From Chara braunii (Eukaryota; Plantae; Charophyceae), in contig BFEA01000004.1 of assembly GCA_003427395.1 (NCBI GenBank), positions 3,459,160 to 3,520,987 of the forward strand: DNA of 61,828 bases, read 5' to 3'. Of this stretch, positions 40,572 to 41,298 are shown one piece after another. The number at the start of each line of letters is the position of its first letter. The stretch's first letter is position 1. The notes below the pieces were generated by a model. That model ran no database searches. It was not told where the DNA came from and saw only the letters and a list, made by a program, of their open reading frames with translations. The translations under genes were made by a program, and so were the position numbers.

Positions 40572-41298
40572 AGCCAGACCACCCAAACTTATGGAACATG
40601 TCTAGCTCAGTCATGGAGTATACACAAACACAGGGCACAATAACTTTTCTCTTCTTTGGGCATGTGACTAGGTCACCCTAGTCGCCCTGAACTGTTCAAG
40701 TATCCAAGATTTATATAATTGTCTGCACTTAGTCTTTTGAGGTAACATATAACTGAACCGATCATCTTCAGCTCAAGATTAAGCCTGCTCCTTCGTACCC
40801 CAATTTTATTCTTAATTAGTACTCTCTTCAGTTGGTGATAAGCTATAGTCAGACCAACTTAACTTATGAAACCCTGTCTGACTAGCCTGTTCATAAGTAG
40901 AATAGTAATAAAGTATAACCAAATTATAACCTTCTGGTTCCAACATGTGCGAGGCGTTGGACCAAGACCACCCAAACTTATGAAACATGTCTTGGTCCTC
41001 AGCCTGGTTCGTTTCTCTCAAAACCAAAACAGGAAGAGGTTGAGCCACCCAATCTTATGGAACATGCTCTGACCTCCTAGTTCAGAAACTAAAGAAACTG
41101 ACAGAAAGCCAAAGTAAACAAGGCGACCAAGCCACCAAAACTTATGGAACATGCTTGGTCCCTGAAAAGTCAGTCACATTCAGCCCTCACTGATCAGAGC
41201 AACCAGATCACCCAAACTTATGGAACATGTCTGGTTCTTCAGGCAATTTCAAAATAAACTTAGCACTGGGCCTTCCCAAACTTATGGAACTAGCCCAG
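40572..41298. repeat. Array of 7 stem-loops with conserved loop CACCCAAACTTATGGAACAT
   Basis: Hairpins at 40572, 40846, 40959, 41036, 41125, 41201 and 41266 have different, self-complementary stems. Confidence 0.85.

Follow-up and report, generated by a model that had tools for sequence, protein, structure and literature searches.

Retroviral packaging signals sit downstream of the major splice donor, and MoMuLV NC requires three hairpins together (PMC7599994; this and the other articles are cited for their accessible parts). RNA viruses also employ many stem-loops that share a recognition motif (PMC6281560). Retroviral export elements are long multi-stem-loop regions, among which the MPMV CTE has NXF1-binding loops (PMC11379458, PMC4829213). 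In Diaspora, an LTR element of the Athila lineage, donors are predicted within the 2.5-kb LTR and acceptors at gag (PMC1142308). Very little is known of the way in which plant LTR retrotransposons distinguish genomic RNA from mRNA, or from the RNAs of other families. Here we analyse a 61,828-nt stretch of the Chara braunii genome (the window), a piece of repeat-rich eukaryotic DNA whose zf-DNL reading frame, by its closest named relatives, places the host among the seed-free streptophytes. Seven hairpins presenting nearly the same loop lie in it, inside what is likely a long LTR.

The array recalls several of these systems in part. It is like MoMuLV SL-B/SL-C/SL-D and HIV-1 Psi in that adjacent hairpins, of which more than one is needed for binding in the retroviruses, occupy a retroelement 5′ region downstream of the major donor (a likely one here); the retroviral signals consist of two or three hairpins that differ from one another, have self-complementary loops and lie close to the primer site, whereas the array comprises seven like units inside the LTR (PMC7599994). 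The packaging signals of single-stranded RNA viruses (MS2 TR-like) similarly combine many stem-loops, a common apical motif with a bulge, and variable stems, and their spacing matters, but they are short, degenerate motifs dispersed over the genome, in contrast to a compact array with a near-invariant 20-nt insert in a plant retrotransposon (PMC6281560). The MPMV CTE, the MusD MTE, the SERV-K/MER11 element and the RRE are also structured regions of unspliced retroelement RNA, with repeated protein-binding loops in the CTE, but these transport elements are animal, bear no sequence likeness and do not consist of seven separate same-loop hairpins (PMC11379458).

Two plant systems are closer in host. 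The palindrome region of the maize Sireviruses Ji and Opie likewise provides about seven repeated hairpin-forming units per LTR, with family-specific sequence; these elements are Ty1/copia, and their palindromes are siRNA-linked and placed in the upstream cis-regulatory half, whereas the array belongs to a Ty3/gypsy-like element and lies downstream of the likely first exon (PMC4728375). Diaspora and FIDEL share long LTRs and a tRNA-Asp primer site, and Diaspora the predicted donors inside the LTR, but the accessible parts of these two articles describe no hairpin array, splicing upstream of gag is only predicted there, and the LTR studied here is longer, at least 3.6 kb (PMC1142308, PMC2844528).

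The host element is likely most of a long LTR

The array is carried by element B, whose class is read from a related LTR copy, A2, elsewhere in the window:

38256–41840, minus strand: element B, a piece of about 3.6 kb of a long LTR, recognized by high depth; 5′ (right) end probably cut off, ends approximate
38268–38650, minus strand: conserved block near the LTR 3′ end, common to A, B and C (alignment, 64–71% identity), with the highest DNA depth
50031–50048, minus strand: primer binding site of the tRNA-Asp type, following the 3′ end of A2 after 2 nt and lying outside B

Element B is a dispersed high-copy repeat. Summed DNA contig depth reaches 15,000–400,000 in the bins spanning 38244–41843 versus 39–89 to the right, hundreds to thousands of times the flank, where summed contig depth is not a copy number. 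The left end has a possible CA at 38256, and the right end is apparently cut near 41830–41840. Within the window we found no target-site duplication, no second B copy and no coding region of the B family, gag included, and no primer binding site stands behind B itself. The preliminary description of this DNA had placed the hairpins in an LTR-like element, for which both the high depth and the kinship to a primer-site-flanked LTR argue; its suggestion that the element is non-autonomous finds nothing at the locus to show it.

The class and orientation of B follow by homology only, from its kinship to A2 and the tRNA-Asp site of that copy. The conserved block of B is 64% identical to that of A2 in the same orientation, and A2 ends, on the minus strand, with CA, then 2 nt, then the primer site, of which 16 of 18 letters equal the primer binding site of FIDEL, an Athila/Calypso element (PMC2844528). 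Priming by tRNA-Asp is a non-chromovirus trait (PMC6317226). A tRNA-Asp primer site and a long LTR are typical of Athila/OTA elements, an assignment carried to B by homology; the reading frame behind the A2 primer site returned no Pfam match and no homologue. Judged by sequence kinship, B likely represents the greater part of a long LTR from an Athila-like lineage of Ty3/gypsy, with its 5′ end cut.

Another diverged element, C, spans 56480 to about 60300 and has the same block order as B, with 62–71% identity in three blocks. It is interrupted by a MITE at 57620–58371. The block near the LTR 3′ end, 300–380 nt long, occurs in three diverged LTR families (38268–38650, 35913–36211, 50208–50501 and 56517–56890) and contains an invariant 11-mer; the copy in B has no Rfam match.

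Seven hairpins share a near-invariant loop

Each of the seven stem/loop units announced in the preliminary description was located between 40572 and 41298, where it had been reported:

40572–40607, minus strand: hairpin H1, from fold and pairing count; its single mismatch, C-A on the plus strand, becomes a G-U pair when read on the minus strand
40846–40884, minus strand: hairpin H2, outer stem perfect, inner part degenerate, hexaloop sequence kept; weak model score (E 0.78)
40959–40998, minus strand: hairpin H3, with a loop change at 40983 private to this copy (92%)
41036–41076, minus strand: hairpin H4, with private changes at 41053 (loop) and 41070 (stem), 96–97%
41125–41160, minus strand: hairpin H5, with a loop change at 41137 private to this copy (98%)
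41201–41236, minus strand: hairpin H6, with the pairing letter at 41208 in 98% of contig depth
41266–41298, minus strand: hairpin H7, with a variant internal loop and the same hexaloop; E 8e-5 with a model built without H7

The loop had been described as a 20-nt sequence or a close variant of it. Five of the seven units match the sequence with 0–1 mismatch (five matches in the array versus a chance mean of 0.01), whereas H2 (40855–40875) and H7 (41272–41292) carry 21-nt variants. These were detected via a 15-nt core of the loop, seven of whose eight matches fall inside the array (chance mean 2.26). Successive loop starts are 275, 114, 77, 87, 76 and 63 nt apart, which puts the recurrence of the last five units, previously given as about 65–90 nt, at 63–87 nt. 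Stems are imperfect in H1, H4 and H6 of this copy. No long minus-strand reading frame crosses the array, the longest having 80 codons.

Pairing is kept while stem sequence changes

From unit to unit the two arms of a stem change in a matched way, as the preliminary description had maintained. Over the first eight pairs of the seven stems, 49 of 56 are Watson-Crick; with the 3′ arms permuted among units the mean falls to 30.4, and 49 is reached by one of the 5,040 permutations, the true one. In a gapless alignment of the five units with a 20-nt loop, both sides change in six of eight outer pairs, and covariation is 0.55 versus 0.26 in shuffled alignments, a value attained by none of 500 shuffles, with slid controls at most 0.12. 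The corresponding signal is weaker in a MAFFT alignment of all seven units (0.35 versus 0.24 shuffled, 9 of 500), in which two stems are out of register. Identity among the same five units is 0.94 in the loop, 0.47 in the arms and 0.26 in the flanks. These observations support selection of the unit for structure together with a fixed loop.

Other genomic copies were surveyed through contigs from two DNA runs of one sample, perhaps that of the window itself, over 40950–41305, a region holding five of the seven units. Contigs less than 80% alike were excluded, variants were listed from 12% of depth, a change was called private where another letter made up at least 90% of depth, and phase is not visible in contig depth. 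Thirty-two sites reached the 12% threshold, 12 of them private to this copy and 20 variable among copies. No loop position out of 101 is variable, as against 4 of 85 in stems and 16 of 154 in spacers; loops differ from spacers (Fisher p 3e-4), with loop variants diluted by contigs that fit several units and so inflate loop depth (100 of 1,745 and 139 of 2,097 contigs), while the difference between stems and spacers is not significant (p 0.15). Contig depth peaks at all five surveyed loops (26,000–96,000) and drops to 4,000–12,700 in spacers. One of the refuting outcomes named in the preliminary description, loops no better conserved than their flanks across copies, is not what the survey returned.

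The private changes point the same way. Five of them, in loops (40983, 41053 and 41137) or core stems (41070 and 41208), fall where 92–98% of contig depth carries the common loop letter or the letter that pairs, and 41239, 41292 and 40860 follow the same trend, other copies being closer to the intact hairpin. This copy is therefore in decay, within a family whose hairpins are cleaner. None of the four variable stem sites has a compensating partner that reaches 12%, and the variants at two of them, 41045 and 41271 (18% and 24%), would disrupt the innermost minus-strand pair.

Hairpins in related elements

Element C has hairpins of its own at the place matching the array, and both elements contain longer hairpin units:

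59440–59830, minus strand: six hairpins with another loop in diverged element C, a 68-nt tandem repeat
39988–40287, minus strand: three longer hairpin units of about 120-nt period in B, common to C (folding, repeats)

The C units have a stem, an internal loop, a short inner helix and a loop different from that of B. They show no compensation between units, as 480 of 720 permutations are as good as the true one, and their folding scores are weak. The model of the B array hits one C unit at E 0.13, with CAUG and UG in common at the internal loop, which is not significant. No same-loop array was found in LTR copy A.

The longer hairpins, three each in B and C (58787–59096), are built around a common GGCAGC motif. 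Two of the three in B fold at z −5.5 on the minus strand versus −1.0 and −1.6 on the plus strand, and the third at +1.1 versus −1.6. Of the five long B and C hairpins compared with shuffled sequences, four fold well only as the minus strand, via G-U pairs.

An origin without RNA function can be weighed against these data. A palindromic unit could have been amplified in tandem, its arms matched by template switching, which can perfect inverted repeats without selection, and its loops evened by recent conversion; tandem repeats are common in these elements, and the array of C is a plain 68-nt repeat without compensation. However, the loops are 94% alike while the flanks are at chance level, 26%; conversion would carry stems along with loops; the loops are invariant across copies whose spacers vary; and G-U pairing in the neighbouring hairpins is confined to one strand. 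We consider such a neutral origin unlikely.

The hairpins likely fold in minus-strand RNA

The strand and the open-loop shape in the preliminary description have to be revised. Most likely the functional strand is the reverse complement, on which the loop closes into an inner helix and a hexaloop. In the minus-strand unit a variable outer stem leads to an AUGU/UG (4+2) internal loop, followed by a helix of 4 bp that contains an invariant U-G pair and is capped by a UAAGUU hexaloop; this fold is predicted in H1, H3, H4, H6 and H7, and the inner helix is missing in H2 and, in this copy, H5. On the plus strand, the invariant U-G pair becomes a mismatch. Folding energy is lower on the minus strand in all seven units and z in five of seven, although base composition favours the minus strand and makes this comparison weak by itself. 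Folded as a whole, the 751-nt array has a z of −3.2, and in long-range folds H3 and H6 often pair with other partners.

Three RNA runs, X6, X7 and X8, all from one study, cover the array. Reads from X6 and X8 are nearly one-directional (11.2 versus 0.5 and 19.2 versus 2.8). In stranded libraries of the usual type this bias would mean minus-strand RNA, although the strandedness of these runs is not on record. X7, the deepest run, has a flat profile and the opposite bias (226 versus 419), and its signal may be DNA or antisense RNA. Most RNA reads are less than 95% alike and so derive from other copies. Taken together, the hairpins likely fold in the element's own minus-strand RNA.

The fold bears on two proposals made for the loop. 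A dimerisation signal, one of the functions first suggested, is hard to maintain: a hexaloop-hexaloop duplex comes to +2.2 kcal/mol, and the hexaloop has no self-complementarity, which makes kissing loops unlikely. A small-RNA decoy or source, in which the 20-nt insert serves as a target mimic or the hairpins are diced, is most improbable. The insert does have the length of a small RNA, but it is predicted to fold on itself, it has no Rfam match, and stems of 6–11 bp are short for dicing. A precedent in favour of this alternative comes from rice, where a retrotransposon serves as a microRNA sponge (PMC5599236).

The array lies downstream of a likely first exon

RNA coverage along element B points to an exon and a donor to the right of the array, that is, upstream of it in the transcript:

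41555–41840, minus strand: likely first exon of the element transcript, from the RNA/DNA depth ratio
41549–41557, minus strand: likely 5′ splice donor AAG/GTAAC, cut between 41555 and 41554, from read ends and a match in C

In X6 and X8 the RNA/DNA ratio is 2.5e-4 to 7.7e-4 in the bins spanning 41412–41843 versus 0.5e-5 to 1.4e-4 further left, while X7 is flat; in the first two runs, RNA per DNA depth rises about tenfold from left to right across a boundary near 41550. Loose RNA read ends that are not poly-T accumulate at 41559 and 41560 (7 reads in X6, 10 and 13 reads in X8), and element C has GAG/GTAGG at the matching place. No splice joint at the likely donor was observed in the RNA runs, and the short motif at the loose ends, a possible second exon, is absent from the window, as would follow from an acceptor in the internal region. 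The loose ends could instead come from a diverged subfamily. A long-range contact between the hexaloops and their complement at 41585–41590, in the likely exon, was considered and rejected, 0.9 such matches being expected by chance.

Counted from the likely donor, the array begins 261 nt and ends about 980 nt downstream, and it would consequently be confined to unspliced RNA. Its distance upstream of the LTR 3′ end is about 2.3–3.0 kb.

This position weighs against an element acting at the DNA level, either as repeated sites for a transcription or anti-silencing protein or as cruciforms, as proposed for the palindromes of Sirevirus LTRs. Maize Sireviruses have about seven palindromes per LTR in their cis-region, but there the arms are conserved and the centre is variable, the reverse of the array (PMC4728375), where identity is 0.94 in the loop and 0.47 in the arms. 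Furthermore, compensating arms are needless for a duplex site, the G-U pairing is strand-specific, and the array lies downstream of the likely first exon. We regard action at the DNA level as highly unlikely.

Proximity to the donor also raises the prospect that the array controls splicing or polyadenylation in the 5′ LTR, in that the UAAGU of each hexaloop, which matches a 5′ splice site from +2 to +6, would lure away U1 or related factors and so leave part of the RNA unspliced. The array begins 261 nt behind the likely donor, the same hexamer occurs in donor-like sites of the window (38199–38204 and 37584–37589), and the negative regulator of splicing of RSV offers a model. Yet position +1 is A rather than G, and is paired; about five pairs at most are possible between the hexaloop and U1; the equally fixed internal loop is left unexplained; RNA is strongly enriched in the exon in two runs; and the hexamer is absent from the array of element C. 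A role of this kind seems improbable.

A candidate platform for packaging the unspliced genome

The outer stem keeps its pairing and not its sequence, while the internal loop, inner helix and hexaloop keep their sequence, which is the signature of a protein-read site repeated for avidity. Of the functions first proposed, multivalent display of one motif is the one we hold as the best reading. On minus-strand RNA, the repeated hairpins would form a multivalent protein-binding platform; an intron location would restrict it to unspliced RNA, the sole form that retains the primer site; and the Gag of the element would recognise the array and package the unspliced genomic RNA. By analogy with retroviral and RNA-virus signals, we tentatively favour the array as repeated docking sites for Gag, a reading we put at somewhat short of an even chance and whose weakest step is the identity of the protein.

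The array falls outside Psi as that signal is defined, being placed kilobases upstream of the primer site and lacking self-complementary loops. Psi takes a leader position next to or behind the primer site, whereas the array precedes the LTR 3′ end by about 2.3–3.0 kb, and none of the self-complementary loops that serve dimer initiation were found in it.

Alternatively, the array might export or protect intron-retaining RNA, in the manner of the CTE, the RRE or the MusD MTE: binding of the loops by a factor of the host, or by an accessory protein from the element itself, would let unspliced genomic RNA avoid being retained in the nucleus. A position downstream of the likely donor fits this equally. 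Known export elements are mostly in the 3′ half or in env, and the array has no sequence likeness to any Rfam family, both of which count against the idea. In its favour, known transport elements are long and multi-stem-loop, and loops of the MPMV CTE bind NXF1 (PMC11379458, PMC4829213). We judge export or protection possible, though rather unlikely.

If docking by Gag is the function, or failing that export, the array could be the first packaging (or export) code described in a plant-lineage LTR retrotransposon: an intronic same-loop array in a very long LTR, read multivalently by a protein of the element, with each family using its own loop and so sorting its RNAs into its own particles. This broader proposal is speculative, and we consider it less likely than not. 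It would suggest that very long LTRs owe their length to a structured RNA platform that is spliced out. The array provides a small and exact target, a single 36–40-nt hairpin from an abundant family, for which natural variation already shows the positions that are fixed and those that are free to change, so that packaging or export specificity becomes directly testable with short RNAs. A same-loop array and its own binding protein would, if true, also be a candidate tagging pair of the MS2 kind.

Comparison with described structures

Rfam over 38000–46000 gave two matches near E 1, neither of them on the array, and over the whole window only two U6 copies. Forty metagenome loci and seven viral-contig loci that fit the array pattern were rejected as chance: none of the 47 matches the element by BLAST, their stems are 1–5 bp, and the best model score is 28 bits versus 54–60 for the real units. 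Literature searches found no published description of such an array in plant retrotransposons, including in the accessible parts of PMC3601003 and PMC13468544; most subscription papers, and the genome paper and supplement on the repeats of this organism, were outside their scope. The array is a real, selected and new variation on structured retroelement-RNA signals, whose function we infer.

Other features of the window

Several further repeats in the window have hairpin-forming sequence. At 45248–45283, 47350–47385 and 54888–54920, LTR-end-like sequence is followed by a minus-strand stretch complementary to that end, forming a hairpin, which at these three junctions may be a self-priming or U5 inverted-repeat structure. 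Another repeat at 47540–47940 contains about eight small hairpin-like units with 7–9-nt loops, the first five at a 41-nt period, and folds weakly. Tandem units of 96 nt at 45342–45545 and 54148–54339 have two ends complementary over about 16 nt, and a palindromic repeat family of about 110 nt is represented at 2043–2206 and by six related copies.

The two U6 snRNA-like copies, at 6636–6736 and 31522–31638 on the minus strand, score above the Rfam gathering threshold and are probably pseudogenes. A fragment of a LINE-like reverse transcriptase lies at 35322–35918, for which no longer homologue was found at E 1e-15. An uninterrupted zf-DNL (ZIM17-like) reading frame at 9120–9848 could be either a retrocopy or a gene; the named relatives that match it best come from a liverwort (78%), Sphagnum (76%), and Ceratopteris and Marchantia (72–73%).
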